IMG/VR virus record: IMGVR_UViG_3300032290_001460
Coordinates: 32,001-96,000 of that record
Source of the DNA: a virus
Taxonomy: Duplodnaviria; Caudoviricetes
Reading direction: 5' to 3' (one strand)
DNA length: 64,000 nt
The notes under the pieces were generated by a model, which was given only the letters and a program-made list of their open reading frames with translations, did not search any database and was not told where the DNA came from. Within the stretch, counting starts at the first letter, position 1; every line of letters starts with the position of its first letter. Positions 10,606 to 57,100 of this stretch are shown one piece after another. A program made the position numbers and the translations under genes.

Positions 10606-13600
10606 ATGAGCCAAGGAACATTTGAAGACATCCATTTTAAGGCGATGAATGGCCAATTCAATATAGATGAGGCACAAGGAATCGTTGAATGTTTCGTTGC
10701 CGCCGTAGGTAACAAAGACTCCGTGGGTGACATCGTCGCATCGGGGGCATTTACAGAAAGTCTCAAGCGCCGCAAACCGCGCGTTGTATGGGGACACAAC
10801 TGGAACGACCCCATCGGTAAGGTTCTAGAAATTTACGAAGTACCAGCACACGACCCGCGTCTCCCAGGAAAAATGAAGCAAGCAGGAGTGGGCGGGCTCT
10901 ATGCGAAGGTTCAATTCAACCTTGCAACAGAAAAAGGTCGCGAAGCATTTGCTAGCGTCGCTTTCTTTGGTGGAGACCAAGAATGGTCTATCGGCTATAA
11001 GACTCTCCAAGCAAACTTTGACTCCGCCATGCAAGCAAACGTTTTGCGTGAAGTTGAACTGTACGAAGTGAGTCCAGTTCTTCATGGTGCAAATCAACTG
11101 ACAGCCACAATTTCCGTCAAGAGCGACGAAGGTGAAAAGTGCCACAGTCCTGCTATGGGCGCTGGAATGCCAATGATGCCAGCAGTAATGCGTGCTTTTA
11201 AACCAGGGATTCCAGAAGGTGGCCCATCGCGCATTTCGGCAAGAATTGGCTACGACGTTTCTAGTCCTCGTGAAGATATTTTTGCAGAAGGCGAAGCACG
11301 CGAACTTAATCGCGAAGAAATTTATAGACTTGAAGAAGAACTGATGTCACGTTCTAATAATCGTCTCAAGATTATCTCCGCAACTGAAAATATGGTCACA
11401 TTCCATCGGATGCTCCCCAATGGTTCATCAACGGCTTACCGTCTCCCATACCACTACGATACGGCTGTTAGACAATACATGTTTGGCAAACCAGAGAAGA
11501 TGGGACAAGGTCCTAGCCAGCCTCAACCACAAACAGTCGTTCCTATGCAGATGCCCAGTATGCCAATGTCTGTCAAGCCGAATGCCGTCAGCCCATATGC
11601 CATGGTTAACGGTGGATACGATGGCGAAAAATCCGTTGAAGAAAGACTCCATGAAGTTATTGCTGGCTTAAAGTTGCCGCTCTTCGACGATGAAGTAGCA
11701 GAAAAATCTCAACAAGATAAAATTGAGGAAGTAGTGAATCTTCTTCAATCCTATATTGAAGAGAAGAGCGAACCCATGCGTGTCATTATGAAATGTGAAC
11801 CGCATCAAGCGTTCCGTGTTAAGGAACTACTCGACCCGGTAATTGAGTATCACGGACTTCAGGCAGAAGTCAGTGAAAAGGGCGTCCATCTTTCAGGGAC
11901 ATTCAATGATGAAACACTCGATGCACTATATGCGTCAGAGAAAAGTATTCAACGGATGTTCATGAAAGAGGGTGGTTGGGGAAAAGATAACGGCCCTACG
12001 GGGCCGACCTTCGAAGTTGAAGTAAAAGCCCTCGGAGGCCGAGTTGGCCAAAGAATCGGTGGAGGCCTGAGTGCTGCACCACCAGGGATGGTTTGGGTTG
12101 ACGTAACCGGAGCCATAGATGGCGATAGCGATGGAATAGTTTTTGAGGGTACGCCTATGCAGCGTCCCATTATTCCTCGTGCGATGATTCCCAAGGTGCA
12201 GGCGTCTATACTTCAACAGACTTCCCTCCCCCGCGCTATGGAAATGGAGCGAAATAGGGTTCCTAAACCATCTGTTTCGCAAGAAGATTCCAAACCACGT
12301 TTAAATCAGGTTCCTAAAAAGAATGAATCAGATTCAGTGGTGCCTTCTAAGCCTATTCCAAAAATAGACGACACTATTCCAACACCCAGTAAGGCTCCTA
12401 AAAAAACTCAGGGGCGCAAATCAAGAAAAAGCCCTCCTACTAATCCGAATATATACGACCCGTGGGTTTATAGAAATTCAGGAACCGAGCGCATTCTTGG
12501 TAACGAATTCAGCATCATTACGCCACTAGATGAAATTATTAACTCTGTTAGTTCTAGAAGTAAAAAATTGACTCCTAAAGAAATTATTGACAATTATGCT
12601 TATTTCCTTAATTATAGAGGCCTAGACACTCAACAAGTTTTTAAAATTTTTGAAAACCATGGTTATGTTAATACTGAAAAAGTCAACCAAACCATATCTG
12701 ATGAGTTGAAATTTGCGATAGATGACATTATTGCGGCAGGCGGAAGAATTGTTTTTGCACAAAATAATCTTCTAATTAATTTGGGTGGCAATAAATTAAT
12801 AATTGATTTATTAGATAAAGATAGTTATAGTAATGTTAGACAGCAGTTAAGTATGCCCTTGAAGCAATTGTATGTAAAAGAAAGAAAGACAGTAACAAAT
12901 ATTTCGGACTTGTCTCCTAGGTATAATTATCTTAAGCCAGAATTGAAAAAATTAAAAGAAAAGTATGGCGATTATTTTGTTATACGCGCCCTGGATGCCG
13001 GCCATTATTCTGCTGTTCTTTTTGACCCCATCTCTGGTGACCCCCTAAAAACTTATCAATTTAGTGGTAGTCCACGAAGTACTTCTAACCTTTTAAAAAA
13101 CCTTTCTTCAGAATTTACAAATGCAGCCGTAGTTAGAAGATTTGAATCAGCAAAAATATGGAAGCCAGCGCGCGAAGTCATTGATAAAGTACCGTTGAGA
13201 CCAGCAAATGAAGGGGAAACCCCAAAATTCGGTCCGCTGAGTGGTACTTCTAAGTTGGTTCAGATTTTTTCTGAACTAGGTTTTTCGCCAGACAGTAAAG
13301 AATATCCTAATGCTCTCGTTGAATTAGAAATACATGATATTGGTGACGGAAAATTTGGTGTATATGGTGTAATCGTAGATGAAGATGGCATAGAACACCT
13401 CGTGAGCCAGGAGCAGGATGGTCTTGCAGATTCATTAGATTTTCTTCGTGCACTAGGTTCAGAATATTCTCAGTCGCAATTATCAGAAATGAGAAGTGCT
13501 CATCTAAGACGAATGGGGGTCGTTGGTCAATTGGGCGATACTTCTGGGTTGAGTCAAGAAGTTGAAGAAATGAGGGCTGCTCGTGATGAACGAACTTACA

Positions 13601-16600
13601 ATCAGTGGTTCGTTGATGATGGTAGTCGTTCGCAAAGAACACCTACCCTAATTTATAATACTGCCGCAAAATCTATAAGAGATATTTTTGATGATGAAAA
13701 AACATGGGACCCATTCTTTGAAGACCTAAAAGATGTTTTGGGTCATTCTCAAAAACAATCGCAACGCCTACTCGACCTCTACGATGACCCGAACGCTACA
13801 GAAGAGGCTATAACTAATCTTGAGGAATCAATTAGGGAATTAGATGAGCAAATTGCCGCCGTTATTGATTACGCAAAATTTTTAAATGGAGAAAATCGTC
13901 GCGCTCGTCTCAAAAGACTAAAGAATCCTCTTATTAACAAAATGATTGACGAACGTACTGGGGGCGAGTATTCGGATTTTACTGATGCTGAAATTGAAAG
14001 ACTTAGAAACAATCTGACTTTTTCCGAAAATGATATAAGCGATATCTTTGGCGTTGAGGGAAGCGATAAGGCTAGAAATTTCGTTGAATCAATGCAGGAT
14101 GTTTTAGATGATGCGGAATGGTATGACGGCATACTGAGCAGTCCTATAGAGGACGAGAATAACCCTGATTATTTGGAAAATCCATCTCAAGAACTTTACG
14201 ATGATGCTATTAGAAGTTTGAGCATGGAAATTGATTTCATAAAAGATGCTAGAAAGCGTAATCATCAACAAAGACTGGCTATTTCGGATGGTAGCAATTT
14301 ATCCGATGGCACCAGTCGCTCGCAGCGTTCCTTCATTAATGGACGTGGAGTGGGCGAAACTAGGCAGATTTTCCCCAATGAAGACAAACAGGGAACTAGT
14401 AAAAAAATTAAGTACGCTCGTTATGATGGGCGCAAAGAAGAACTGCTGGTTGAATATTCCTCTGGTGAAACCATCACCTATGGTGGAGTAACCGACAGGA
14501 TGGTTTCTGCAGTTGAGAAATCACTAGATGATATTGATGGCGGGATTGACGGGATAAAAGCAGAAGCACGCTATTCTATTAAACCAGATGGACAAATAGA
14601 AGGCAGGGCGGTTAGTGTAGCAACGCTAGTGCAGAGAGATATTGAACGTCTCGAACAATACGATGTTATTACTGCAAAAGATAAGTTATGGATGCAATTA
14701 GCAGCAAATGCCATATTGTCAAATTTTGAAGAACCGCCCGAATATGAACTATTATCCTTGTCTGACCAATTGGCTAATGTGGCAAATAAACTTGCTCGCG
14801 AATATGAAGAAAATTCTGCAGCCCTAAACCTTTTAGAAATTAAAAGTTCTATTGACGACAGAGTAGGCAATGGGCTTGGCGGAACTCGCGGTACACGCAT
14901 GTATCGTCCACTGAAGGATGAAACAACATTAGATTTAACCAATGACGAAATTGGTGAATTAAGAGACGAAATTCAATCAATTCTAAACAAACATGGAGAC
15001 AGAATTACTTTTGCTCCTTTTGCAGAATTTGACAAAGCGTTAAAGGACGCTCAAGATTCAAACAAAAATAATGTAACAATTAAAAATAATTTACATTCAG
15101 CATTAACCGTTGCTTACGATGAACTTTACTGGATGGCTTCACACAGTCAAGCAGAGAAAAGATGGCTCAACCCCATTGGGGAAACACTACTCAATATTGC
15201 TGCAGCATCCGGAAGATTCACCTCCCCACGCCTCAGTGCCAATAGGGGAGACTTCAAGGGCGTCCCATTCAATAATGGCGCACCATCAAGAATGACCCCC
15301 GAAGCACGAACTACCCTCATAGATTGGGCAAACGGAGACGGATTAGGGTTCTATGTTCTAAAAGACATACGTGATTCTTATCGACTCAGGAATGGAAATC
15401 TCACCTCGCGACAGTGGAACACTCTTGCGAACATGTACAGGCGCTTTGGTCCTGGTGGCAGTGACAGAAAAGACTCAAGTAGTAGAAGTAAAAAAGATAC
15501 AGAAATCTACTATGCCATTGTCCCTTCGGACGTCCCGGACCAAATTGACGATGAGGAAGAAGAAAAACCAAAACCCAAGAAGCCAGTAGGAAAACCTGCT
15601 TCAGAGTTACTGCCAGGCGACTTTGATTCAATGACTGCAAAAGAAAAAATTGATGTCATGTTTCAAATTGGACGTGCAACAAAAGATAATCCCGATGGCA
15701 TCGCCCCAGAAGATTGGGACAGACTAATTTATCCCCTAGACAAGGAACTTGATGTAGAAGAAGCAGTACAGAACCAAGCAGAATTCATGGCTGCACAAGA
15801 AGCCGCTGCAATGAGAGGCGAAGTACTAACAGAAGAACAGTTCTACGAAAACAAATCACGTCAAGCGGAATTACACGACAGAAGAACAATACAGCGTGCA
15901 TTAAGTGAATACGACGCTGGACGACCCGAGTTATTGCAAAAACTTGGCCTACGTAGAGAAAACTTTATTATTAAAGCAGATAGAGAATACAAGGCCCCCA
16001 CTAAGCCAAAGCCGTTAGGTAAATGGGCTACAGATTTCTCCATGAAGATACGTTCTCAAATAGAAAAAGCAATTGCCAATGGGCTTGCCGGAGAAGAACA
16101 TCTTGACCCATGGCTATCCATGGAAGAACTTATTAATGACAACGATGGTCTCCTTGATGAAGAAACTATCCAAAACATTATCCCTGTCCTAGAAGAATAT
16201 GTCAGTGCTTATGATGGGGCAGAATTTGGACATCGTTCAGAAGGTAATAGTTATAAACAAGCCAACGACATGATTGAGGAGTTGGAAAATACTCTTTCAA
16301 TTCTTCTTGACCCAACAATAATCGAAGACGATTCCGATGATAGCGGAGATGACAAGAAAGACAGCGACGCTGCCTCAGAAGTTCCAGATACAACTCAGGG
16401 AGTTTCTCTATCCATAGAGGGCGATAGTGGTTCAAAAAGCCGTCGCTCATCATCTATGGCAAGTACTACGGGCAGACAAGACGCTGTTGATTCCGGAAGT
16501 AACCAAATAAATTCCGAAGATAGTAGCAGGAGTATCCGAGAAGTAATCAAATTAGAAGATTTACTTGAAATAGATAAGCGCGAACAATCCGAAGATATGG

Positions 16601-19600
16601 GAGAACCATTCGTTGAGTTATCAAAGGCCCTCGAAAATTGGTTAAATAATCATATTTCAGATATGGGCGGATGGGACAAAAGTCACGAAACTCGACTACG
16701 TAGGCAGGTAGAAGATTTAATTTTGAATTTACGTGGCTTGCGAGACAAGTGGCAGTCCATGGGGACTGCTAAACGAAGCGGAATATTGAGACGCATGAAG
16801 ATGGTTGATGGCTACGAACCGCACCCTCTAACTAAAATGTCACTTGAAGATATCATTAGTAAATCAGAATTACGTATTCACGATGACGGAACTCTGTCTT
16901 TCAAATTGCCTCCCAACCCAATATTGCGGCAACTCATACCAGGCAACAGAAATTATCAAGATGTAGAGTTGCCCACTGCTGAAACTGTTAGTGAAATTTT
17001 TGATAATCTCACAAATGATTGGCGCAGATTAGATGAATTATTCAATTCAATATATGAAGTTTTTGATGAAGATGAAGACGGGCGACGTGGAGCGCGCCTA
17101 AGGAAATACCCTGTCGGCGGGGAAAAACTGCCGCACCACTCCTTGTATCTTGGCAAGTACGCTGAACCCCCGACAGAAGCACCATCTCCGGAAGGGGCGC
17201 TCCAATACCACTACAACGACATTTCTGCTCGTATTCTTCAGTATTACATTATCCCTGAATTAGCAAAAATTAAACGCAATGAAAATCCAAAAATTGGAGA
17301 AATCTCCAACGATAACGACCATTTTATTCATGGATATTTACAGTTATTTACAGACCCGCATGCCTGGCAGGAGATGAGTGCTGTGTTGTCTGAAAACTTC
17401 CGTGTATCGCCCGGCACCATATTGCATGACTTATTGGGGCACTACGCCCTTGGTAATACTTTTGATAGACACGGAGAATATGGAAATATTCTTTCAACAA
17501 TTCAACTTGCTCGCGATAAGAAGTTCTGGCAGAAGTTGCGCGAGATACCAGAACTTTCTGACCTATCCGAAGAGGACAGGGACCTCTACATGCGCGGCTT
17601 GCTCGTTGATGTGGCCGCAAGATGGTTTAATCGTGTCGGTACAGACTCCCCGGATGACGAGAGGAGATTGAAGAAGAAAATAGCGTTCTACGATGGACCT
17701 ATTGATGAACTTCTTGACAAAATCGACCCGCCTAACGAACAATCGTCAAGTTCTAGTCGTTCTACACGAAGAATCCCATTAATCGATGTCGATGATAAAC
17801 AACTTTCTGAGTTAGGTAAAGAATCTATTGATGGTATTGCAATAAGAGAAGAATTTATTAGACCATCTTCTCGTGACGAATTAGAACAATTTGTTTCACG
17901 AAGAAAACCGATAGGTTCGGACCTGCCTGTTGATTTACGCACTGGCGAACCTCGCCGCATGTCTCATGAGACAGACAGAGAGTGGAATGCTAGAAGAAAT
18001 AATTTTTATAGAAACAACCCATGGTTTGACCGGCCCCCTATTGATGCTTCTGAAGATTCCCCTAAAATTGATAGAAATAACGAATTTGGTGATGGAGAAT
18101 TAATTAAACCCTCATATAAATTTAATTTTAAATGGAACCAGTATCAAGATTATACTGATGAGGAATTAATAGATAAACTTAAATCAGACAAAAAACCTTC
18201 CAATACTTTGGTGCATGAATTGTCTTTACGTGGATATGAAGTTAGAAAAAAAAGAGAATATGATTTAGGTGATTTTAGTGGTAGGGAAGGATATGACTAC
18301 ACATACTTCTTTGCTAAGCCAATGGATGAAATAACCCAAGAGCATCTTGATAGAAGAAAATCTAAATACAATCCAGTTGATGAAACACAAAAAATAGATG
18401 AGCCGTCAACCAGCATAATTCCTACATTGGAAGAAGACGTTGTTGATGAACAGGATTTTGTTGAGCCAGAAGAATTCCCATTAAAGCCGAAACAGCCCAG
18501 GGTTCCTCGTCCTCGACCCGGTACCAACACCGTGAATATTGGTGGCAATAATTCGGGAATCATAAATCTCGGCAACAATGTGACAATTGATACTGGCGAC
18601 ATAAATGTTTCTAATCAGGGCAGTAAGATTACTATTATTAATGGGAACAAGGTTACTGTTGATGCCAATACGGATGTATTGAGTATGCCATTGAAAAAAG
18701 TTGATGAAGAACTTGCTAGCATACAGAAAGATTTAGCGGAACTTAAAGAAAGAAGAGTAAAGGGCAGTATTTCTGATGCTGATTATGCTCAGCGACGCGT
18801 AGATTTGGCTAATAGGAAAGTTGCTCTCAAATTAAAGAAACATTCCGTCCCTGATGGTGATGCAACCAAGGGCACACCCAATGTTTCCTATATTGGCAAC
18901 AGTTCAAGGTCAACCAGAAATATTGATTATTATCGTAGGGAATTTAATCTTTCTCCAGAAGATTTGGAATTCATCAAATATACCAATGCCCCAGATTTAT
19001 TTTTGCGTGAAGAATTTGGGATAGACGATACAGCCATAGCAGACATTCGTTCTTATGTGCCGCCGTTGGATGTCATCAAGGAAATAGATTCTTTAACCGA
19101 TGATGATGTTAGATTCCTTGAATCTTACGATGGTATTGTTTCACAAATTACTGAAGAATTTAATTCTTTTGTAACTCGGACGATGGCCGAACGTCTTCAG
19201 GCTATTCAATACATAGGAAATTCTAATCTCCCTGAATTGGAAAAACAAGAAAACATAAAAGAAATTGATGATGCATTTAATGAATTATTAAAAGTTAACA
19301 GTGAAATACATTTCGATAGGCTGAATGATGCCGTACTATATACGGCACCTTTAAATTATCGCGGTTTTGGTTGGAGGATGACCCCAGAAAGAATTTCTTC
19401 ACTTGGCTTACCTGAAGGCTATGAAAACAAATTAAAGTTCAATCAGGCTACTCGCATTTGGGAAATGATGAATGGACTGGGCTTTGACTGGGACGAAATC
19501 GAAGATTTCACTGGTTTGACTTTTGATGAATTGAAACCCCTATTCCCACATGTCCGAATTATCGGGATGATACGCGAACAGGAGAAAAACTCTTTAAATA

Positions 19601-23871: not shown

Positions 23872-23879
23872 TATAAAAG

Positions 23880-23908
23880 GTGACTTTATCTTACTATTTT
23901 AAAGTCAC
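23880..23908 (+). terminator. Inverted repeat after the giant ORF (possible terminator or operator)
   Basis: GTGACTTTA-N11-TAAAGTCAC, 9-bp arms, no clear T tail. Confidence 0.35.
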
Positions 23909-24157
23909 AACAAGCCCCCGTAACCTACTTACGTCAAAGATTTTCCCTCAAAACAAATTTAGATTGCATAAACTATACATGTTTCAGTATTTATTCAAAT
24001 TGATAGGCACTCTCAGGGTATACTATGAGAAAGAATGATTTTATAATTAAATAGATACTTCTACTTCCTAGCCAATATACAGGCTAAGATACTGGAAGTA
24101 GGCACTAGCCACGCTGGGTGCGCATCCAGTACAAAGCATTACAAGGAGTCTCGAACT

Positions 24158-25954: not shown

Positions 25955-25986
25955 TTCATAGTTCTATTTAGGGATTGGAGCCCGGT

Positions 25987-36063: not shown

Positions 36064-36066
36064 AGG

Positions 36067-39267: not shown

Positions 39268-39269
39268 TA

Positions 39270-40889: not shown

Positions 40890-40892
40890 CTC

Positions 40893-46800: not shown

Positions 46801-49115
46801 TCGGCGAACAAGAAAGACTGCGCCGTTCCAAACTGACTACGGGGTGGAAGGTTAACCCACAATCTCTCAACGACCGTGGGCCCTCATTTATGAGGCTTGA
46901 GAAAAAATTAGAATTAGTAAATAGTGATGGCGAAACTTTATTTACTTCAAAGAAAATTAAATTACAAAAAAAGAATTCATTCAACAATCAAGAAGTGGAA
47001 TATATTTTTGTTCCTAGAACTTTTTTTTCACTCTATGATGGCGATGATTTGTCTCAAGCAATTTTTGTATTAAATGCCGAACTATCTAAATTTGATATTA
47101 GCAATATAAGCATAGATGATTTATTTGATTTTCCTGATACAGAAAATGGTCAATGGATTCGTGAACAATTAAATAAATTCATCGAATACCGCAAGAATTC
47201 AGACAGATTCCTTGAACAAATAAACGGTGGATTTAAAACACTTTCCGAAGAAGCAAAAAAGACTGCTTCTAGTATTGAAGAAATAGATACTTCCGAAATC
47301 GAGGATATTGATGTATTGGATGGCGTATTCACCCATACCAAAGATAGAATTCAGGCTATCAAAACAGGACAAATAGGAGCCATAGACCAAATAGGTGGAG
47401 TTGAACATGAATTTGGCCATATCGCTCTTGGTTTGGGTTTCGATAGACATGGTGACTTTGCATCACAATATGCCGCCCATCTCATGCATGGAGGCCAGCC
47501 GTACATAGGTATAGTAGTCAACGCAATTAACTCCATACAGGCTGGAGGTTTTGCTCGCGACGAAAACGGTAATAATGATGGTACTTTCGTTATCCCACTG
47601 TGGTCGGATGTACCAGAATCCATGTGGGGCTGGCCAGATGGTTCGTCGTCTCGTTCGACTAGGGGTAGTCGTGGCGCTCCTTCATTTGCCAAGAACCTCA
47701 AGAATGAAGAAGATATTCCCGATACTGGTGTTGCCCCATTAACAAAAGATGGATATCTGGATGTTCCTCAGCCTATTGAAGTTGGAAATAAAGCGGAACT
47801 CCCAAATGGTGAAACAATGGTTCTTGATTCCCCTGAAGCATCTATAAATTTTGTTTCTCAAGGTGGCTCACTTTCCCAAGTACCAGACACACATTTAGCA
47901 CAAGCAATAAAAGATAATGCTAGTCAAAATCCGCAAGATGGAAAACGTTTTAATGTTTTGGGTTCAGGTGGAGGCGTACATGGCATGCTCCGTCTGGAAG
48001 ATACCACCAATGGCGGAATGATTGGTTTTAAATACTCTAATGGTCTTGGTGGGTATGGTGAACTCCTTGAAGATGGACCACGCAATGAAGTTATTTCAGA
48101 AATTGTTGCTGAAATATTTGGTTTTCCCGCCATGCCAATGAGACTGGTTCGTCGAGACGCTAAAGATTTTGCTCCAGGTGAACCTACATTCTCCCTTATT
48201 ACTAATTTGGCCCATAATTCTTATACTGGCCAACTAACACCAGGCGGCGCAAATTATGCTGACCGTAAAAGTTCGTTTTCTAATTCAATTTTCTGGGGAG
48301 AGCAAGTCGCGTCGCTAGAGCAACGTCTTAGGATGCTCTTACTAGATTCTGTAATAGCAAATGAAGATAGACATAGAATGAATATGCTAGTTTCTACTGA
48401 TGATAATGGAAATTCATCATTGATACCCATTGACCATTCTTGGGGCCTTGAGAGGCGTCTTCCAGGGCATCCTTCAAAAAAGGGTGTAAATTTTCTTGAA
48501 GAAGTATTCTTGTACGAAAGAGGAACTTCAAGCAGAAGAGATTTTCCATTTAATGATGTTTTTCTTACGATTGATAGTGAAGAAAAATATTCTGAATTTA
48601 TTAAAATTATTGAAGAAATACAAAAAGAAGTTAGTTCTGCAGATATTCAAGATGCGACAAATCGCATGAAAAAGGTTAATGAAATAGTCAATACTACTGA
48701 GAATGTTGATTTTGCAGATAATCTTACTTGGAGTTTGTCCGACCTTAGGGATAGGTTGGATAGATTCTTAGGGGCTGATGCTGAGGAAATTGCTGGCCGT
48801 ATTTTACCTAAAGAAATTATTGGACATAATGCTGCGATTAATAAAGCACTTTCGCTGGATAGAATGCTGACACAAGAAGAGTTAATTGAAATTGCAGAAA
48901 AATATAAGTCGGATGCAAGATTGTTGAAACTAGCCGTACTGGCCTTTTTGGAAAGTATCGAAATGATTGAACCTCCAAAAAATTATTCGGTACGCCCATC
49001 CGTTGACCGTCATAGGTCGTCATATCAAGATGCAATGGAATTTTACTTAAGAGATAAAGATGCTTATGAGGCATTCATTAAAAAAATTCCGCCCGACCAG
49101 AGACTGGATTCATAG
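40893..49115 (+). CDS. Giant polyvalent protein (2740 aa): 2x LGC-WxPC, tag, zincin, zeta-like kinase, pentapeptide repeats, ArdC+MPTase, FDRHG domain, HipA-like kinase
   Basis: LGCSGAH..WRPC and LGCIG..WMPC; HELAH..SEYATTSRIEYFAE (42261); AGTSGSGKST..DID.FK (42950); A(D/N)L pentapeptides (43780-44700); WERPW/PRN..TGKPY.G.N/WMTFKQA and AYYSP..D/HELVHWTGH/YAYEELVAEIGS; HEFGH..FDRHG (47406); NEV...N.DRH..N..PIDHS (48366). Confidence 0.85.
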   Translation: MNPKSSATIAKMRALRQAKELGCSGAHQTEDGIWRPCASADELIKFGKINEQGDDSKIRGRSSRGVNKIRRQWETPKRREYVAVDTISNADLANSISFKADWYAPSDNDVDVFTDISSAQKRSRQLGCIGVSRRVSKTGKTVWMPCTNMTDYSRVAGTTALGRRHLREQAKRTILDVVEQSKKPLKNRKKSLLSEMSINPNVTLVKALGPKVGNIGRPSGPVAVDISGTIDADMDGIVFEGTPKARPIIPRVNTPDIQNLDNVSQQVTPDVLSPEEPQDTEKKLRRNQRAAGLVAKIRTSRLNKLTPTNDMYRNSNISKMINDSFPSTEAELMESLKSNPYSRKNWEKIHASIVKAKPDWEETAKIKDFLLDMAGESGDNGGLQKLIRMHGLPTVVATKNQPRHNLFQRKFWEYTTGAYHSDGYIAFNAGAFGRKGSSWWMGYDSMSDADLKHDLRHELAHAFQFMAIAQNQQAKDNFANSFVDDFMTTLEKPEDTSNRRRTKLSMDLSWGEPEEIVDAQKISEYATTSRIEYFAESLATALSGDRKEMSKISGQTISHMAESLGLSMPEMLDIIGRNNEGDFNNINILSRSRSQRINKIDKPLVEFANNNPQLLDEIPMRIRKNMSPEAVAAGRELRIDGRRAYSVERTANGTVVGSGGMAVTRKIIGNVDNDFKNKPDKKLYMVAGTSGSGKSTLIERGLIPDMPTEKMAAHLDIDRFKQGLSGYNNGEGAVRVHPAARAALQKTIDASAVKGIDVVLQGYGNDSSQLRRAKSMGYETIGHFVHTPKSVASKRVEDREKSGGPQIGSELSQILSDELPSIVSQQIQRGLYDEFYLWDNKKSYDALDPNAKSIKPELIAYRKNDGSYAIENEFLFNKFFGNESKNIKQYWEMNNNQDDVDEISEPSINSYSENNGRIEYKKFTGFNSSNAIKDDDVKDSDISNYVFDNQVFSDKINMASKNANHSSFSFTKLKESKFNASKLFGAKFNSADLRDADFNSLNDKQITDLRYADFSNAILTNANMRGALLQGTHFAHADLRNVDFRSANLLNSNLDGANLAGANLSNAKVLKSQLTNSRWNGSTIFPDGFVPPEMTPIRLDEPSPRRLPGIFDSGTDDADKLRPYVKSGFVGMNGADNADISIPGRDLSYATIMSSNFDNSNLEGSNLFESDIVESSMVNVLLSNSDMRSSRLDNVDFSNSRMNGSNLDGATISNNTSFNGTKLRNSRLTNMTFENEPDFSGADLRNANLSNTDLSSILTDELTNLDGALFSSSKHYPKIYKGQPTVLMPFADTTNSYNSDILDTDSPIFQGLDSTKLLEFVEKNLYSKNQKSTYRGLSVDDWKQHLDSVDSHIIDNNDAIAHLGNRNDAVSKDVESLKNFRLPDGSSIDVLAYTAHNSPNKFIADVNERRDKNPDAFKNPNPELLWERAMSVREQEKRLLQQNTELQERKKELNRLLNLSKTIDALYVNNIYKNNDKPIEDPSANLIELNVSVQNVETLTNFSPRAARKINRAVNKLVDNDFVVSSRSKRDTKKSFAPKKTSKEKLDSMYQAMTDALIASLEDAKDGNWERPWKLNGMPRNAITGKPYAGGNSVILALVENGKGYEMPVWMTFKQAKALGGTVRAGEKGTECVYWARRESTKVGTDGDEEKSSFLVANFFHVFNIAQTDGIDPERFKIEELSPEQRLEALDKIVSELAPSLVEGTGDKNRAYYSPSTDGINMPPFGYFKDPLSYYQTLMHELVHWTGHTSRLDRPNMNQHGTPEYAYEELVAEIGSVFLMGILGLEPEPQEGHSIYIAGWLTKLKNDPDMVRKASAEAQKAVNLLLGKSPTLQAEYDRGFPDVDETLDAGEKVIDDSLQVVEDVVDSVTSVGDSSRSKRLPSPGEAPLESIAAIIETRDNWLVDFSNSRWLSAFGSPIVEQSENHPHVPVVRFPRIPILDKSTGLSDEDFALIDSVEYLTKEQKDALRDFGEQERLRRSKLTTGWKVNPQSLNDRGPSFMRLEKKLELVNSDGETLFTSKKIKLQKKNSFNNQEVEYIFVPRTFFSLYDGDDLSQAIFVLNAELSKFDISNISIDDLFDFPDTENGQWIREQLNKFIEYRKNSDRFLEQINGGFKTLSEEAKKTASSIEEIDTSEIEDIDVLDGVFTHTKDRIQAIKTGQIGAIDQIGGVEHEFGHIALGLGFDRHGDFASQYAAHLMHGGQPYIGIVVNAINSIQAGGFARDENGNNDGTFVIPLWSDVPESMWGWPDGSSSRSTRGSRGAPSFAKNLKNEEDIPDTGVAPLTKDGYLDVPQPIEVGNKAELPNGETMVLDSPEASINFVSQGGSLSQVPDTHLAQAIKDNASQNPQDGKRFNVLGSGGGVHGMLRLEDTTNGGMIGFKYSNGLGGYGELLEDGPRNEVISEIVAEIFGFPAMPMRLVRRDAKDFAPGEPTFSLITNLAHNSYTGQLTPGGANYADRKSSFSNSIFWGEQVASLEQRLRMLLLDSVIANEDRHRMNMLVSTDDNGNSSLIPIDHSWGLERRLPGHPSKKGVNFLEEVFLYERGTSSRRDFPFNDVFLTIDSEEKYSEFIKIIEEIQKEVSSADIQDATNRMKKVNEIVNTTENVDFADNLTWSLSDLRDRLDRFLGADAEEIAGRILPKEIIGHNAAINKALSLDRMLTQEELIEIAEKYKSDARLLKLAVLAFLESIEMIEPPKNYSVRPSVDRHRSSYQDAMEFYLRDKDAYEAFIKKIPPDQRLDS

Positions 49116-49370
49116 ATGAGATACATATATTTGACATCAGATAAGTTAATGGATACACCAGAGTCCGTGGTAACTATTGATGGTGATGAAGTGAAAGTTT
49201 ATTCTGCATCTTTGGATTTTAAGAAGATTCTTGAGGATGTCATTCAGGGCAGTTCTGGTCAAAAACTTGAAGATAAATTCAGTCGCATGTCATACTATTC
49301 TACTGAATTCGGTGATATGAATTCTGAGATGGAAGCGGTTATCAAAAAATTAGAAAGAACTGAAAAGTAA
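49116..49370 (+). CDS. Small acidic hypothetical protein (candidate immunity/partner)
   Basis: 84 aa; ATG immediately follows the TAG of the kinase-terminated ORF. Confidence 0.6.
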   Translation: MRYIYLTSDKLMDTPESVVTIDGDEVKVYSASLDFKKILEDVIQGSSGQKLEDKFSRMSYYSTEFGDMNSEMEAVIKKLERTEK

Positions 49371-49406
49371 CAATAATTTTACTTATTGCCAAGGAGGAGG
49401 TGTGTT

Positions 49407-50996
49407 ATGAAATACGAATATAGTTCTACTAAAAATAAACTATGGTTAAAGACTTTGCCAAGAAAAGTTAGATTACTAATGCCTACAATAGGTAAGAAAT
49501 CTCTTGGTGGTTCTATTGGAAGGGCTGGAGAACCTTTTGACCCCAATGCGTTTGATGGTGATATGGATGCCTTGGTCCAAGAAGGAACCCCATGGGAGCG
49601 CCCAGCAACACCATCTGTTCCTAGGGGTGCTCGCAATATCGTGAAGCCTTCTATTATGCCGATTGAACTAGAAGGAGTGCGTTCTGTTCAGACCCCTAGT
49701 AGTTCACGTTCAGCGCGAGGCCCCTTGAACTTACCCGACCCATTGCCGCCCCCATTAGAGAATGATGCCGTCGTTGATGAGTCTGGATTTGATTTCGTTG
49801 ATTCCCTTCATGCAATTGTTGAAAGGAGCCCTAAGAAACTTGGGTTAAGAAGTCAAGAGTTACAGACGTTGAAGAAGATAAAAGATAGAGACTCAGATAC
49901 AGAACTATGGGAAGTTTCTGATTTTCTTGACAATGAGACTATTCGTTCTGAATTGAAAAAACATATCTCCGAACGCATTGGGAGTAAGTTTGCTGAGAGA
50001 GCACGCGAAGATGACGACTTTTTACAAAGTTTGCTCTTGAGTTCAATTGCCCCTACTCATGGCTTATGGTCGGATATTACTGAAGCCCTTAAAGGCGATG
50101 ACATTGAGGAAAAGAGACAGAAGTTACAAAAACTTATGTCTGGCACTATGGATAAAGTTACTCCAAGTCAGAAAAGTTTTATTAAAGAGTCTATTGAGTG
50201 GCTATCTGATAGAAGTAAGAAGAAATCTGAATCATTTGATAAAAAAATTGATGTTTTGGCAATTAATAAGGCTAGTGAATATATTAACGAGTGGGCTAAT
50301 AGTTCTAATAATTCTCCTCGCTCAATGGCTTTACAGCGCATGGCCATTCAGGAATTCGGCTTGGAAGATGGAAGTTACTATCCAGAAGATTTGTTACCTC
50401 TTTCTGGGCAGAGTCTTAACGCTCAATCTATGAAACAAAGAACAGACGAAGAAGTGGACATGAATGGGATGCTTCAACGCGAATTCCTGCGCATACAGTA
50501 TGAAGAAACTCAGAGAATGCTCAAAGAACTCAATGTTCAGTCATTGTCTGTTGCAAGAGGTATGACAGTTGGCGAGAATAGTCAACTCATAAAAGATATG
50601 AATTCCACCAATCCTGATTGGAAAGAAAATAATGTTGGGGTAGAGAAACCTCTTACATTACGTCCGCTTTCTTCGTGGGCTACAAAATCATGGGAGGCTA
50701 TGAAATTTGCGTCCCCCCTGGAAGAGGGTAACGAAAATGTTCTTGCAGTAGCAAACGTACCCGCAGAGCAAGTCTTATCCCTCTCAACAACAGGGATTGG
50801 ATGTTTGCCTGAGTGGGAAGCAGTTTTAGTGGCGGCGCCGGTGAATGCCAGAATATTCAATATGCCAGAGAATATTGATGATGTTGAGAATGCGGAAGAA
50901 TGGTTAATGGACCCAGCGTCATACGAAGAAAATTCTGACTTTGACTTAGATTCACTCTACGACGACGATGACGATGACTTTGACTACGAAGACTAA
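49407..50996 (+). CDS. DGDxDG-tag protein with C-terminal R-S-E type ADP-ribosyltransferase-like domain
   Basis: KSLG..FDPNAFDGDMDALVQEGTPWERP; SSSRSAR; VARGM (R), LSSWAT (S), LPEWEAVL (ExE). AGGAGG lies upstream of ATG 49407; track start is 49386. Confidence 0.72.
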   Translation: MKYEYSSTKNKLWLKTLPRKVRLLMPTIGKKSLGGSIGRAGEPFDPNAFDGDMDALVQEGTPWERPATPSVPRGARNIVKPSIMPIELEGVRSVQTPSSSRSARGPLNLPDPLPPPLENDAVVDESGFDFVDSLHAIVERSPKKLGLRSQELQTLKKIKDRDSDTELWEVSDFLDNETIRSELKKHISERIGSKFAERAREDDDFLQSLLLSSIAPTHGLWSDITEALKGDDIEEKRQKLQKLMSGTMDKVTPSQKSFIKESIEWLSDRSKKKSESFDKKIDVLAINKASEYINEWANSSNNSPRSMALQRMAIQEFGLEDGSYYPEDLLPLSGQSLNAQSMKQRTDEEVDMNGMLQREFLRIQYEETQRMLKELNVQSLSVARGMTVGENSQLIKDMNSTNPDWKENNVGVEKPLTLRPLSSWATKSWEAMKFASPLEEGNENVLAVANVPAEQVLSLSTTGIGCLPEWEAVLVAAPVNARIFNMPENIDDVENAEEWLMDPASYEENSDFDLDSLYDDDDDDFDYED

Positions 50997-51005
50997 GGTA
51001 AACAA

Positions 51006-51227
51006 ATGAGTAAAAACAATAAACCGATATTCGTCAATGAGAATACTTTAACCAACAGGCAATTTGACTTAGATGCAAGCAATCTTGAAGAGTTGGCAAG
51101 ACTTATTGGGGTAGCGAAAGATAGCCCTGAATTTGACGAGTATTTAACTGAGGCAAATAAACTATCTTGGGTAGAAACCGCCCCTAAAGATATTCGGGAT
51201 GCCATTAGGGCACGCGAAGTAAAGTAA
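51006..51227 (+). CDS. Small hypothetical protein (candidate immunity/partner)
   Basis: 73 aa, AAGGT Shine-Dalgarno, follows the ART-like gene. Confidence 0.6.
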   Translation: MSKNNKPIFVNENTLTNRQFDLDASNLEELARLIGVAKDSPEFDEYLTEANKLSWVETAPKDIRDAIRAREVK

Positions 51228-51236
51228 AATACTACA

Positions 51237-54173
51237 ATGCGCCCCCGTATACGTTCCACGAGATTCTATCTTCCTTCAACGAAAGCCCTAGGCGGCTCTA
51301 TTGGTCGTCTCAATGAACCTTTTGACCCAGATGCCCTCGATGGGGATGAGGATGGCATAGTTCAGGATGGTACTCCTTGGGAGCGCCCGGGAATACCTGG
51401 AACGCCTAGTATCTCTGGTGGCAAGATGAGGGATGGGTCAAAAAGAGAGATTACTGCGTCCTCTGATATTGACAACACTGAGGAAATCGCCACGCCCAAT
51501 GATTCCTCGGAACAAGTCCCAGTCTCGGATATTACCTTAGAAGATATCGTTGATGAACTTTTAGAAATTCTAACTCCCGAATTCTTAGAAGAAATAAATA
51601 AATTTGGGGAAGAATTTATGTTTGGCTCTGGTCGCAATGTTAGAAAAACAGTTCAAAACGTTGATGAGTGGCGCGAGATACAGGATGCCGAGTTAGTTAC
51701 CGTTGACGTGTTCGAACCAGGGGAAGGACCGGGGGAAACTAAATACCCCATTCCAAAAGGGAAATACACCATAGGCTCACCTTCGATGATGAAGGCAGAA
51801 GAGCGAATTAGGGATGTTGGGATGAGGGTCGTCCAAGGATTGATGAATTTTCTTTCTGGTTCTAGGGAGAATAGAAAAAAAATGCTCGAAGAGGCAAGGG
51901 GCCGTCTTGAAGAGTACAGAGAGACTCAAAGAGAAGTTACTGAAAAACTTGGGCTTGTTACCTGGGCTAGAAAATGGGAAATGCGTTATGCTGATGAAGA
52001 TTCAAAAGAAAGGGGTAATTTTGCGAGACAACTTTATGACACGGCTAAAGAATTATTTGGTAATCATCCAGACTTGAGCCCGGATGCTGATTTTAATGAA
52101 ATTGCAATGACTAGGTCTGAAGATGTGAACTATATTGTCAATAAATATCTTTTAAATTTACTTCAGTCAGATGTTTTCAAGGCCATCGATGAAGAAGATG
52201 GGGAAGAAAGTAATATTTTTGTTAATCAGATAAATAGGCTGAAAAAAAATATTAAAGAATATGAAAAATCTTCTCGTGAAATACCGGGAGTAATTAAAGA
52301 GGACTTAGTGAGATTGCAACAATCACTTGATGAATCGATGGCTGTTAGGAAGAAGTTGATTAACCAATTAAATGATGTTGCCACTAAGCCCATTGACCCA
52401 ATATACGATGATGAAATCATTATAGAAGATTTGACTACTGAAAGTGGAAAAGAATTTTCTAGAATAATCAATGAAGAACTATTGCCTATTTCAAGAAAAA
52501 TACTTCTACAGTATCGAGATATAGAAGTAAAACTAGATGAAGAAAAAATGGATGATGTCAAACGTCAAACCGGCATGAGCCATATTGACGCTAGGGATTT
52601 AGGGGAAATTATTAATTCCGGTGGCGCCGTAATTCCATCTAAAGTAAATTCGCGAGCAGTTACTGCAAATGAAATTATGGATGAAATTAGCCTTTTGCAA
52701 AACGCCAAAATTTCTGAAGTGATAAAAGATATTGAAGAAAGAATAGTAGAAACTGAACGTCCAGCACTGCTTCGTAAAATATTTCCTACAGGATATTGGA
52801 AGTATGATTCAAAAACTAAAAAACCTGTCAGAAATGCGCGAAGAGAAGATGGCTCTCTAATTTTCGCCACTCCATTGACCGTGCTGTTTGCGGGCAAATC
52901 TGGCAATGGCGTGATAAAAGAAACTTTTCAAAAAGCATTAAAATCTTTTGAAATATCCAGCAAGGATATTGATGCTTATTTAAATTCATATCATGTATCA
53001 GATGAGAGTCGCGATAATGCTATGTCTCTTTTGGGGCGACGTACTGAAATAATTGACGAGATGCAAACAATTTTACGTGATGTTTTTGAAGATTTGGAAA
53101 AAAATTATCCTGACTTAGCAGAGCAATATATGATGGGTGGCTTAAATGCCCTGAAAGAGATTGCTCGCAAGGTGCCAGAAAGTAGCACTAGTCAAAAATG
53201 GAATGACTATATGCAAAAAATGGTAGAACTAAATAAGGAATTACAAAAAATTTTATCTGATTTAATAGATGTGCTTTCTCCTGAAGAAAAAGATAAATTA
53301 AAAAAATTGCGGGAAGATTTAGAGCAGGCAAAAGTTAAAAAAGGTGATTATATTCTAGAAAAAATTTCATCATTATCAGCAGAAATTGATGAATTATTGG
53401 CTGATAAGCCACTGACATTTTCTCAAGAATTTAAAAAATCTTTAATTAACATATTAGAAGAAATGGGCATATCTCCTTCAAAAGATTCTTTATTGGACGT
53501 AAGTAAGCCAACAATAGGTGATGGCTCCATGAAGACGACTGAAGCAAATGTTGAAAAATTTAAACAACATATTAGTGAAATTGTTCCCGAACCAATTATT
53601 CAGTTATTAAATCTTTTTCTAAAAAATAATCCTCATACGGTTCGTGCATTAACTGTCGATGAAGTCGGTGATAGGGCTGGCCATTGGAAGAAGGGTTCTC
53701 GGCAGATAGCAACAAATTTTGAGCAAAAAGTAAACTTGCATGAATTTATGCACATGATGTCAACTTATTTTCCGTTTGCATCAATGGCTGAGCAAGCGTT
53801 TCTCTATAACCGCGGCTTAAGGGGCGAGAAAGGTTCTTCCGTAGAAGAGAGAATGGTTGATTTAGACTTTGAAGATGCCGTCTACTGGCAATACTCGGCG
53901 ACTCTTGGTATACGACAGCCAGCACCCGGAGTTCGCGATTATAGGAGTAGTGACTATTATATAGAAGATGAATTTGATAAGAGATATACTGGGCGAATCT
54001 ATCCTAGAGATGAACCAGAAGATTTTGCTACAGAGGTTCTCAGCACTGGAATCGAAGTTTTAGCAGACACCTATACCGGTACGGACTTTCCTGACTACGA
54101 ACATCTTGCTTTAGTGATAGGTGTCCTAATAACTGCTGGTATCATGTCTAGGGATGGAATAGCAAAAATATGA
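51237..54173 (+). CDS. DGDxDG-tag protein with long helical region and C-terminal zincin
   Basis: KALG..FDPDALDGDEDGIVQDGTPWERP at the N-terminus; HEFMH (53739)...D.F..RYTGRIY...TEVLSTGIE. Confidence 0.75.
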   Translation: MRPRIRSTRFYLPSTKALGGSIGRLNEPFDPDALDGDEDGIVQDGTPWERPGIPGTPSISGGKMRDGSKREITASSDIDNTEEIATPNDSSEQVPVSDITLEDIVDELLEILTPEFLEEINKFGEEFMFGSGRNVRKTVQNVDEWREIQDAELVTVDVFEPGEGPGETKYPIPKGKYTIGSPSMMKAEERIRDVGMRVVQGLMNFLSGSRENRKKMLEEARGRLEEYRETQREVTEKLGLVTWARKWEMRYADEDSKERGNFARQLYDTAKELFGNHPDLSPDADFNEIAMTRSEDVNYIVNKYLLNLLQSDVFKAIDEEDGEESNIFVNQINRLKKNIKEYEKSSREIPGVIKEDLVRLQQSLDESMAVRKKLINQLNDVATKPIDPIYDDEIIIEDLTTESGKEFSRIINEELLPISRKILLQYRDIEVKLDEEKMDDVKRQTGMSHIDARDLGEIINSGGAVIPSKVNSRAVTANEIMDEISLLQNAKISEVIKDIEERIVETERPALLRKIFPTGYWKYDSKTKKPVRNARREDGSLIFATPLTVLFAGKSGNGVIKETFQKALKSFEISSKDIDAYLNSYHVSDESRDNAMSLLGRRTEIIDEMQTILRDVFEDLEKNYPDLAEQYMMGGLNALKEIARKVPESSTSQKWNDYMQKMVELNKELQKILSDLIDVLSPEEKDKLKKLREDLEQAKVKKGDYILEKISSLSAEIDELLADKPLTFSQEFKKSLINILEEMGISPSKDSLLDVSKPTIGDGSMKTTEANVEKFKQHISEIVPEPIIQLLNLFLKNNPHTVRALTVDEVGDRAGHWKKGSRQIATNFEQKVNLHEFMHMMSTYFPFASMAEQAFLYNRGLRGEKGSSVEERMVDLDFEDAVYWQYSATLGIRQPAPGVRDYRSSDYYIEDEFDKRYTGRIYPRDEPEDFATEVLSTGIEVLADTYTGTDFPDYEHLALVIGVLITAGIMSRDGIAKI

Positions 54174-57100
54174 ACATGAACTGGACTTTCACAATAGGGG
54201 ATAAAGACTATTCCGCCACTTATGACAATGCTTCTTTTGTTACGGATTCTCCACTCGTTGAATACTACGTGAACAAATTAATCGATGACAGAACTGTCGT
54301 CGAAATAGGCGATGTAGGCCCAATGGCTACCGCATCCTTTGAAACCGATGCTCACGCATGGGGAACAATAACGCACGCTATCAGGAAACTAGCCAACATA
54401 GGCTCAGGCAAATATCCATTCTCACCATTAAACGGCGAAGACGAAATAGTTAAACCTGATGATAAAGAACCAAAAACCAAGTCACTAGGACCATCCCTTG
54501 GTGGCGTCAACGAACCATTTGACCCTAATGCTTTCGATGGCGACAACGACGGCATGGTGCAAGACAGCACTCAATGGGAAAGACCTGCACTACCAGGTCA
54601 AATTCCAACAGTAGTGTCGCAAGAAGTTGCTCGGCCTGTGAGTTTAACCTTCACTGGGCCAGACCCACGAATTTTATATCCAGACATGGTAGGCAAAACT
54701 GGCTCTGCTAGATATGGGAATTCCCCATCTATACGCATAGAGCATCCTCTATCTCCAGGCAATGACATTGCTTTTGTTTCCGTTAGAGACTTAATGAAAC
54801 TCCCTGGGAATATGCCAAATGATGATGGGGAGATTATTTTTGAAGAACGCGTTGAAAAATTGAGACAAGAACTTCTATCGAATGGATTCCGAAGCCCGAT
54901 TGATATTGCGTACGACCCGACAACGGGCAGAGCATACGTATCAGAAGGCAACCATAGGCTTCATGCGGCATTTGCTGCAGGATATTCCTATATTCCTACA
55001 ACTATTTTTCCTATGCGAATTAATGAGAATCGTCCGGCTTTAATCATTACAAAAGATTTAGATAAATGGCCGTGGAGAGAAACCGCAGATGGCGTTTACT
55101 ACAATAAAAATCATATGAGGGAAAGATACTTGGAGCGAGAAGATGCTTGGCCCCCATTCGCCCCATCGGAACAAGATAAGAAACATATACCAAACATGAG
55201 AATTCACCCGTTGTGGGTTCTTCCTCAAGGAAGTATTGCAGGAGAAATTAGCGATAACGGTGTTTGGGGTCCATTGCAGCCAAATGCAATAGAGCCATTG
55301 ACGGACACTTCGCGTTCCAAGCGCGAATTCAGTTTCTTCCCTTCCCTAGGAAAAAAGAATAGGGTAAATAAGAAGGCCTTAAGCCAAGTCGGTCCTTATC
55401 CCGTTGTTGGTGATGTTGACTATCCTTCTACGACGCATAGGTTTAAAGTACATGGTTATGAAACATTATGGGCAGTACCCGAAGTTGGTGGACTCAACCC
55501 TGGAGAAATGCTACTTATCAGAGATTATTCAGATGAAATAAAAAATTTTCATCACATTGAAGGAATATCTGATGGATTAGTCCGTATGACAAAAAGTGGA
55601 CAAGTATTATTCACAATTTTGTCACCCGAAGAATCTGTTGAATTACGTGAAAGTATCAGCACGGGGAAGCCTCTATCCGCATCCATAGAACAGCGCATAT
55701 CAGACAGGTTTGTAAAAATACCTGGTGAAGATGGAACCATTGATGATGCTATTGATTTTATGTACTCGATACTTCCATCAAATATAACTAAACCTAAACA
55801 GATTTCTTTGTTTGAACAAGAGGTTATAGACGAATTCACTTATCCGGATGGGCAAAAAACAATAGTTACAGTGGATGCACATGCTAGTCACACTCAAAAA
55901 TCAATGACTTTTTGGAACGGCCATACACCTACTGAATCACTTGAAACAATGCGAACGTTCTTTCATGAACATGGCCATATGATTGACCCAATACCACCTA
56001 TGTATTACATGGTTCATCCAACTGCTACGCAGATGCTGGGCGACTCTCCCGAAAAGCCAATGTATTTCAGCGATTCAATAGCATGGGGGGCTGCAGTGGA
56101 GCGTGATAGCCAGGTCGCTCATAGTATGATTTTAAAAAATGCATTAATTCATCCTGAAACAAGAACACGCATGAGTTTTATTTCTGGCAAGAAGGCTGTT
56201 AGTTTATATGGCACAACTGATGTTCGGGAGGATTTTTCTGAAGCATTGGCAATGTATTTGATAGATAAATTCTATGGCAGTTTTGTTATAAATGAAGAAT
56301 TGGGCACAAACGTCAGATTTGCTCAACTGTTTCCAAATAGGGCACAATTTTTTGATGACGTTATAGGAACATTGTATAGTTTTGATGAGCCTCTTGAAAA
56401 TTTAGTTAAAGCGATAACTACGGGTGATTTCAATGCTATTAATAGTTCACGCTCTAGTCGTATAGTTCCTTCTAAATCAACTTTAATACCTGATGGAATA
56501 TTCGATGTCGAAGAGCCACGATTTGGAAGCGTTCAAAAATTAGTAAGATATACCATGGACAACCCAGAGATAAATGTTTTTCTTTTCAAAAATGCCGCGT
56601 TAAGTCCAAGTAGTTCACAAAAAACTGAGTTTGGTATTGCCGTAAAACATTTAGTCCCAAACAATTTACTTAGTCGCGATGGACACTTTATATCGGTTGA
56701 TATTTCCGAAAGTGAATTTGAAGAGTTATCAACGAGCATGGTTCTTGGTAATGGAATCCCACAGGAAATATCTAATAGAATTAATTCAAAATTAGATATT
56801 ATTCGTAATCAGATGCAAAAATTGCATGCAGTTTTACCGGATGGCGCTGTTTCAAAAATGAGTTTCATACATGCAAGTGAAAAAAGTCTATTCTTGCCAT
56901 GGGTGGATGTAGACGGCCAGGCTGTTACGCAAATTTCTAACGGCCTTGGCCAAGAACCACGCAATTTTATTGCAATTTATAGTTTAAATAGACATACCGA
57001 AAGTCATTTAAGCGATGTATTAGCGCACGAACTCGGGCATATCCTTGATAGAGATGGTGGGCGAAACTATAAAAAATCATTTGTTAATGAATCTAATAGA

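Follow-up and report, generated by a model that had tools for sequence, protein, structure and literature searches.

To our knowledge, capsid-targeting signals have been defined in sequence for T4-like phages and for encapsulins but for none of the HK97-like phages, in which only the protease's own C-terminal region has been implicated in targeting; Duda, Oh and Hendrix are said to have described in 2013 this C-terminal capsid-targeting region of the HK97 gp4 protease. In T4, the capsid-targeting sequence (CTS) is borne by the internal proteins IPI-III and Alt and is cut by gp21 (Mullaney and Black 1996, as reviewed in PMC5694885), and in SPN3US and phiKZ-like giant phages the ejection proteins have long N-terminal propeptides that are processed by the prohead protease (PMC5694885). 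Family 1 encapsulins load cargo into an HK97-fold shell by targeting peptides of the form GSLxIGSLK (PMC10960027). Polyvalent proteins, as treated in the part of Iyer et al. 2017 (PMC5512222) on which we draw, are predicted to be packaged in the head, fusions to MuF or portal proteins being the link to it. Here we analysed a stretch of 64,000 nucleotides (bases 32001-96000, hereafter the window, whose numbering is used for coordinates) of a 106-kb IMG/VR viral contig that is ~71% complete, and we observed that a conserved peptide of 36-48 residues, which we call the tag, is common to seven otherwise unrelated proteins of this uncultured HK97-like phage. The reading that we favour, and to which we give an even chance, is that the tag is part of an adaptor, in which a prohead-protease site is joined to a head-incorporation peptide that would be retained on the cargo and is probably stabilised by Ca2+.

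An initial annotation of the window had listed six copies of the tag, one to each protein. The translated intervals gave the peptides it quoted exactly, and a strict regular expression for the tag matched once in each of the six proteins and not at all in the other ten open reading frames (ORFs) of the window that were checked. The copies are:

12025-12168, + strand: tag copy 1, 48 residues, VDxxGxID...RPIIPR subtype; residues 474-521 of the 4421-residue protease-headed polyprotein
39873-39980, + strand: tag copy 2, 36 residues, beginning K-G-I-G; residues 202-237 of a 539-residue protein
41508-41633, + strand: tag copy 3, 42 residues, RPIIPR subtype; residues 206-247 of the 2740-residue polyvalent protein, behind an N-terminal DUF3721 region
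49497-49604, + strand: tag copy 4, 36 residues; residues 38-73 of a 536-residue protein
51282-51389, + strand: tag copy 5, 36 residues; residues 16-51 of a 978-residue protein, with a weak phrog_7924 match here
54479-54586, + strand: tag copy 6, 36 residues; residues 104-139 of an 1825-residue protein

As had been described, the four copies of the FDP[ND]A type span exactly 36 residues from K to RP, and the two longer ones share VDxxGxID...RPIIPR. A profile built from the six copies recovered each of them from the phage's own 106-kb record at E 3e-29 to 5e-24, values that exclude chance. The same search found a seventh, more diverged copy (E 2e-10) ~1.4 kb past the end of the window (G000:C1:97436-97528), in a 1435-residue ORF downstream of the capsid gene, with its core near residue 625. 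The word N-proximal, which had been applied to the tag, holds only in a relative sense, the K being at residues 16, 38, 104, 202, 206 and 474 and the seventh core at ~625. The parts before the K (15 to 473 residues) are mutually unrelated among the tagged proteins of the window. Among themselves the copies are 55-70% identical in nucleotides, and where two copies have the same residue the codons differ in about half of the cases or more (10/21 to 12/16); the conservation is therefore at the level of protein and old, and the copies arose by ancient duplication and do not form a DNA repeat. Only two tags per genome are found in complete relatives, on their two largest proteins. The count of two holds for four near-complete relatives (G003, G009, G010 and G011), and we regard the seven copies as an expansion in this lineage.

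The core of the tag has the consensus [FY]-[DN]-P-x-A-x-D-G-D-x-D-G-h-[VI]-Q-[ED]-G-T-x-[FWY]-[EQ]-R-P, with near-invariant residues. In a 63-row alignment, D1, D/N3, D5 and position 6 of the loop are invariant or at least 90% conserved; in a count of 193 tags, for which these four positions are partly fixed by the search pattern, position 8 is V or I in 94% and position 10 is E or D in 99%. The tag pattern occurs at no fewer than 371 confirmed places in viral contigs of IMG/VR, and the 63-row profile retrieved 1014 clusters at E<=1e-3, 403 of them at E<=1e-10, among 1.84 billion protein representatives. Among prokaryotes (185,579 genomes, one per species) there were 9 tag places, all in contigs of metagenome-assembled genomes (MAGs) of scattered taxonomy. 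No Pfam family corresponds to the tag, a profile search of the PDB with it gave no match at E<=10, and the ESM Atlas returned unnamed viral clusters only, below 0.8; the core is also found at the C-terminal end of phrog_7924, a family of unknown function. Among 50,697 deposited phage records, neither tblastn with two tag-bearing N-termini nor blastn with the portal-protease region gave a match, and we found no description of a tag of this kind in the literature. By capsid protein the nearest cultured phages are Gordonia phages (47-48% identity), of which ChisanaKitsune has effector-like genes between its portal and capsid genes and no tag in the 41-kb stretch around its capsid gene. The tag-bearing clade is a large one, of uncultured phages of ~140-150 kb with an HK97-type capsid and an S78 protease; the hosts are probably aquatic actinobacteria, for which the only hints are the MAG labels and the identity of the nearest cultured relatives by capsid protein.

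The tag lies within a head module whose landmarks in the window are:

8410-10497, + strand: portal protein, start of the head module (PF04860, E 2.4e-47; phrog_2662)
10669-11127, + strand: S78 prohead serine protease domain, residues 22-174 of the 4421-residue ORF at 10606-23871 (Pfam PF04586, E 2.7e-10)
40893-49115, + strand: 2740-residue polyvalent protein, an example of a cargo carrier (zeta-toxin-like kinase, pentapeptide repeats, ArdC-N and MPTase)
62000-63319, + strand: HK97-type major capsid protein (PF05065, E 1e-45; BLASTP against HK97 gp5, E 9e-64)

The portal gene is followed on the + strand by the 4421-residue protease-headed ORF, a run of very large ORFs and the HK97-family major capsid gene, and from this order we conclude that ~50 kb of giant genes are inserted in the classic portal-protease-capsid module. 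Over its mature part the capsid protein shares 40% identity with HK97 gp5. Peptidase_S78 is the one head protease found in the window, and it is the presumed enzyme for the K-x-L-G sites that precede the tags. Related loci are arranged in the order terminase, portal, protease-tag polyprotein, further tagged genes and capsid gene, and S78 was found in 15 of 20 tag-bearing contigs and in all four of those at least 90% complete (136-151 kb, two with terminal repeats). The initial annotation had asked whether profile hits are confined to phage head modules: the tag is indeed tied to a block of virion genes and to the S78 protease, but the core also occurs beside a lysin gene.

Across an alignment of 15 protease polyproteins, the protease, a further pair of conserved domains, K-x-L-G and the tag follow one another in the same order, and the S78 block is invariant; a Foldseek search with a model of the protease-to-tag region gave weak matches to assemblin and T4 gp21, none at E<=0.001. 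We observed that related polyproteins are 48-93% identical from residue 1 to a point between a few and ~20 residues past the tag, and are shuffled or unrelated from there on. In one example the identity is 92.6% over residues 2-499, followed by shuffling; in another, residues 8-524 of the 4421-residue polyprotein of the window correspond to residues 8-495 of a relative, and homology of the window protein to its relatives ends at residue 524. Two complete relatives have K-[AG]-[LI]-G at residue 404 and the tag at ~430-460. The linkers in the part that follows are genome-specific (L103, L104): one complete relative has 17 copies of L-G-S-R, the other has 8-13 of G-F-A-S(-R), and the window has 23 of S-R-S-x-[RK], against 0.9 expected, within 12550-58590. 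Given that homology stops just past the tag and that the linkers are genome-specific, the tag closes the constant part of the polyprotein, and what follows is cargo that can be swapped. That the tag comes before the SRS linkers, as had been claimed, is true of every strict S-R-S-x-[RK] motif, although the 978-residue protein has none and an untagged 3362-residue protein has four. The three linker types share S-R-[SG], which together with K|[ASG] suggests a protease rule of a basic residue followed by a small one.

The position statistics, drawn from 191 tags in the 150 best representatives, show a strong N-terminal bias: 136 of them fall within the initial 30% of their protein and 2 within the final decile, with a median of 793 residues downstream. 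The regions that precede tags contain S78 in 13 cases out of 36, DUF3721 in 12 and DUF6321 in 4. There are 47 proteins with 2-5 tags each, and in two polyproteins with four tags each K-A precedes 5 of the 8. The carriers of the window contain, besides the zeta-toxin-like kinase, the pentapeptide repeats and ArdC-N with MPTase, many helix-turn-helix domains and DUF7178; the cargo of relatives adds ADP-ribosyltransferase, PI3/4-kinase, HipA-like kinase, GmrSD_C and RNase T, nucleases thus being among the effector-like domains. Several unrelated effector or anti-defence domains in one chain, among virion genes, are what marks a polyvalent protein, and this description fits the carriers, not the tag. 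In the part of the 2740-residue protein that precedes its tag (window 40893-41507), the DUF3721 Cys/His motif is at residues 13-39, and by eye there is a possible second, degenerate DUF3721 motif near residues 127-146.

Upstream of the core lies the first part of the putative adaptor. K-[ASG]-[LI]-G precedes all six tags of the window; elsewhere among the 16 ORFs checked it occurs once in the capsid protein and three other times, with ~3 occurrences expected by chance (an estimate). In the larger set it was found within 32 residues upstream of 71 of the 163 internal tags (44%, against a background of 0.7%, an enrichment of ~60-fold), and the looser K[ASG][LIVMA] upstream of 121 of the 163, against a background of 13%. 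By contrast, the strict and the looser motif are both absent upstream of the 11 tags whose start is no more than 20 residues from the Met; for 28 of the 191 tags the start is at most 35 residues from the natural N-terminus, and K-[ASG]-h is missing upstream of 25 of these 28. Natural N-termini thus begin about where a cut at the K would leave them, and the K-x-L-G element behaves like a processing site. The core follows the candidate K|[ASG] site by 10-30 residues, and the spacer before it is basic (mean net charge +2.7, against -0.5 for background). In an AlphaFold2 (AF2) model, the N-terminal part of the 4421-residue polyprotein has three folded parts, K474 comes just after the last confident helix, and everything from residue 471 onward, tag included, is predicted to be disordered, with a predicted local distance difference test (pLDDT) score below 50 around K474. 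HK97 gp5 has K-S-L-G at residues 103-106, as we checked, and its cleavage at K103|S is established. The upstream element of the tag has the residues of such an S78-type maturation site (Lys, a small residue, Leu or Ile, Gly), and K-[ASG]-[LI]-G with its short basic, Gly-rich spacer most probably serves as a prohead-protease site like the K|S-L-G of HK97.

The capsid protein itself contains similar candidates:

62297-62347, + strand: capsid protein residues 100-116, with K100-S-I-G and K113-S-L, candidate maturation sites of the K|small-[LI] type (motif and alignment)

K113-S-L, which comes after a delta-like region, is invariant in 54 relatives, and K100-S-I-G has the form [KR]-[SGT]-[LIV]-G in the majority of the related capsid proteins that were examined. 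The claim that K-x-L-G is an HK97-type site gained from its enrichment at internal tags, from its absence at natural N-termini and from these capsid motifs. The cleavage site of the capsid protein itself is ambiguous among K100, K113 and ~145.

A further junction was found in one relative (L049:9969-9995; also L053, L054 and L056). Its protease ORF of 586 residues ends ...E-K-K-V-stop, and a tagged ORF of 978 residues continues in the -1 frame at an A8 run exactly on K-K|S-L, such that a slip at this run would give ...E-K-K|S-L-R-G... and then the tag. The four contigs with this junction come from four samples and are 99.99-100% identical. This natural separation of protease and tagged part speaks for the adaptor reading. 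The junction is possibly a site of programmed slippage, which would set the ratio of free protease to protease-cargo fusion.

Because the tag sits between a conserved head-protease part and swappable effector cargo, it is probably a capsid-loading label, and the likeliest role of its core is that of a peptide for head incorporation or anchoring, which would remain attached to the cargo. We hypothesize that the protease-headed polyprotein and the other tagged proteins enter the procapsid by means of the tag, and that the protease then cuts after the Lys inside the procapsid. This cut would free the protease itself, or a variable N-terminal piece, and would make the tag the new N-terminus of the cargo; the effector-like modules would stay in the head and be delivered with the DNA. 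The tag may first have served the protease and later have been copied onto cargo. The conservation of the tag, its distribution, the architecture and the place of the boundary are observed here, whereas the cleavage, the Ca2+ binding, a docking partner and the delivery that this scheme entails are inferred. A more tentative proposal, to which we lean somewhat less than halfway, is that the tag is the first sequence-defined portable cargo-address peptide for HK97-type capsids, a retained N-terminal Ca2+-loop label of ~30 residues that served first the protease and then any cargo. If this proposal is correct, a clade of abundant aquatic phages could swap effector cargo freely behind one constant adaptor, and the tag would be a ready-made handle for loading foreign proteins into HK97-like shells. 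We stress that the tag combines small size with near-invariance, that about a thousand protein clusters contain it, and that its place is precisely the junction of the constant machinery with the exchangeable effector cargo. It may bear on how giant polyvalent proteins enter heads, and searches with it offer a simple way to list the proteins injected by phages of this abundant, uncultured clade.

The T4 CTS, to which the initial annotation had likened the tag, is a good functional parallel: it too is a short peptide shared by unrelated internal proteins, an ADP-ribosyltransferase among them, and is coupled to the prohead protease, and T4 cargo is injected with the DNA, as is proposed for tag cargo. 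The analogy does not extend to the layout. The CTS is 10-20 residues long, lies at the extreme N-terminus before the cut and is discarded, whereas the conserved part of the tag lies after the presumed cut and would be retained; the CTS binds the gp22 scaffold core and goes with a gp21-type protease, whereas here there is an S78 protease and a capsid protein with its own delta-like domain; and the tag, unlike the CTS, has a core that resembles a Ca2+ loop. We therefore rejected the tag as a T4-type CTS, for it neither lies N-terminal to the presumed cut and is removed, nor is accompanied by a gp21-type protease with a site ending in Glu. The ejection proteins of SPN3US and phiKZ-like phages resemble the tagged proteins in having a conserved N-terminal region with a suggested targeting role; their propeptides, however, are removed, are cut by a T4-like protease at a motif ending in Glu (e.g. 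ALE) and do not constitute a common sequence motif. Encapsulin peptides have a Gly/Ser/Leu-rich composition in common with the spacer of the tag (K-S-L-G-G-S-I-G-R), but are C-terminal and of a different hydrophobic register, whereas tags are biased towards the N-terminus; as none of 163 spacers matches the strict or loose L-x-[IV]-G-S-L-[KR] pattern, the likeness is one of composition only and the spacer was rejected as an encapsulin peptide.

HK97 gp4 resembles the tagged polyprotein in that a targeting element lies C-terminal to the S78 domain and the capsid protein has a delta domain; its C-terminus has no DGDxDG, whereas here the element is also copied onto other proteins, and a similarity between the two was dismissed by inspection. 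The polyvalent proteins of Iyer et al., in so far as the part of PMC5512222 used here describes them, are like the carriers in being giant multi-domain effectors (ArdC-N, MPTase, zeta toxin, ADP-ribosyltransferase) encoded among head genes. In that same part of the source the assemblin-like peptidases are C-terminal, whereas here the peptidase is N-terminal, a MuF domain was not found and a short peptide is shared; a short tag was not seen in that material.

Several observations weigh against reading the tag as a retained loading label. The confidence of AF2 for the isolated tag is only moderate (mean pLDDT 68, core ~80), with one small beta bridge. The untagged 3362-residue protein carries its SRS linkers just as the tagged proteins do, and the tag is consequently not needed for every giant protein of the block. 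In three complete relatives the second tagged gene lies 15-24 kb past the capsid gene, on the same strand, and in the fourth a single ORF, encoded on the opposite strand at a distance of ~45 kb from the capsid gene, has both tags. Roughly one internal tag in four is without any upstream K-[ASG]-h, and in the alignment of capsid proteins K103 of HK97 falls near residue 145, beside the invariant K141-D142, and not at K100. The core also occurs as a tandem N-terminal pair in proteins of 130-235 residues, and one such gene (L101:7094-7729) stands directly after an SLT_3 lytic transglycosylase gene, outside the head module. Several of the small tandem-core proteins end in a peptidoglycan-binding-like domain, over which one of them matches endolysin PHROGs; P0037, P0052, P0075, P0092, P0104, P0139 and P0145 are 167-235 residues long, with a linker rich in Ala, Pro and Glu and, in most of them, such a domain at the end. 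The product of the neighbouring SLT_3 gene has an N-terminal hydrophobic stretch. A complex prediction of the capsid protein (54-row alignment) with the tag (63-row alignment) gave no answer (score 0.00) and speaks neither for nor against this reading.

These tandem cores bear on the rival that survives best, which we consider possible although clearly improbable: that the core is a generic Excalibur-like Ca2+ mini-module, which stabilises or spaces termini or acts where Ca2+ is high (cell wall, periplasm), has no part in capsid targeting and came into head proteins by module shuffling. The core indeed shows the residue pattern of a DxDxDG loop (Asp at 1, 3 and 5, Gly at 6, a hydrophobic residue at 8 and a further acidic ligand), in the same register and with the same acidic residue at position 10 as Excalibur (PF05901, DxDxDGxxCE; shared D-x-D-x-D-G-h-h-x-E), Gln replacing Cys in the tag; the flanks [FY]DPxA and GTxxERP are specific to the tag. 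Excalibur was its sole neighbour in Pfam (15.4 bits, E 0.025, for the best of five tags, the other four giving no match), and the tag profile retrieved one true Excalibur repeat protein. With 15.4 bits against a gathering threshold of 22 bits, the tag was rejected as a member of the family; the earlier description of DxDxDG as a Ca-type loop thus stands as to residue pattern and nearest relative, but below the Pfam threshold. On the reading that we favour, too, the core probably folds around Ca2+. Cellular proteins that combine Ca2+ repeats with wall binding have a layout parallel to that of the tandem cores before a peptidoglycan-binding-like domain, which favours a generic module, as does the one case beside the SLT_3 gene. 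Such a module would not, however, be expected to mark the exact boundary between conserved and variable parts, to show so strong an N-terminal bias, to have a regular place after the protease with a K-x-L-G partner only when internal, or to be nearly absent from cellular genomes.

We regard it as unlikely that the tag, once exposed at the N-terminus, binds to the portal or tail channel and serves as an exit leader, setting the order in which giant proteins are ejected, and not as a loading signal that binds the shell. Two tags per complete relative, on the two largest proteins, would suit a unique vertex better than hundreds of shell sites, and the portal is long (695 residues, with the Pfam match ending at residue 383). 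Against this, a cut at the linkers within the head would leave the tag on the first module alone, and the rest would not be led out. Less probable still is that the whole element is a mere substrate-recognition signal for the prohead protease, made up of an exosite and the scissile bond. K-x-L-G and the core are close together and jointly conserved after the protease, as this would demand, but an exosite is hard to reconcile with the 25 tags near natural N-termini that lack the upstream site, and the AF2 model, though weak as evidence, shows the tag making no contact with the protease domain of its own chain. Lastly, a Ca2+-dependent self-cleaving Asp-Pro module of the FrpC type, suggested by F-D-P directly before the DxDxDG loop, is most improbable and was rejected, as the conserved part of the tag is only ~30 residues against ~170 for the FrpC module and an invariant Asp-Pro scissile bond is lacking (D in 67% and P in 75% of the 193 tags, with copies 1 and 3 of the window devoid of D-P).

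Three other proteins of the window deserve mention. A protein of 598 residues (24158-25954, + strand) is rich in Met and extremely acidic. It has repeated M-T-P-E-E-Q-K-M-A-M-x-Y-E-K-M-M units, a C-terminal part with a weak likeness to PepSY and no homologue in the PDB, and it could be scaffold-like or a DNA mimic. Directly upstream of the capsid gene, a very basic protein of 353 residues (60529-61590, + strand) has neither a family match nor a tag, and its candidate roles are those of a scaffold or a DNA-binding internal protein. The large terminase (823 residues; 5651-8122) is encoded upstream of the portal on the opposite (-) strand, and has homing-endonuclease/LAGLIDADG matches at residues 301-364, upstream of the matches to the terminase N- and C-terminal domain families, which suggest an intein or an inserted endonuclease.

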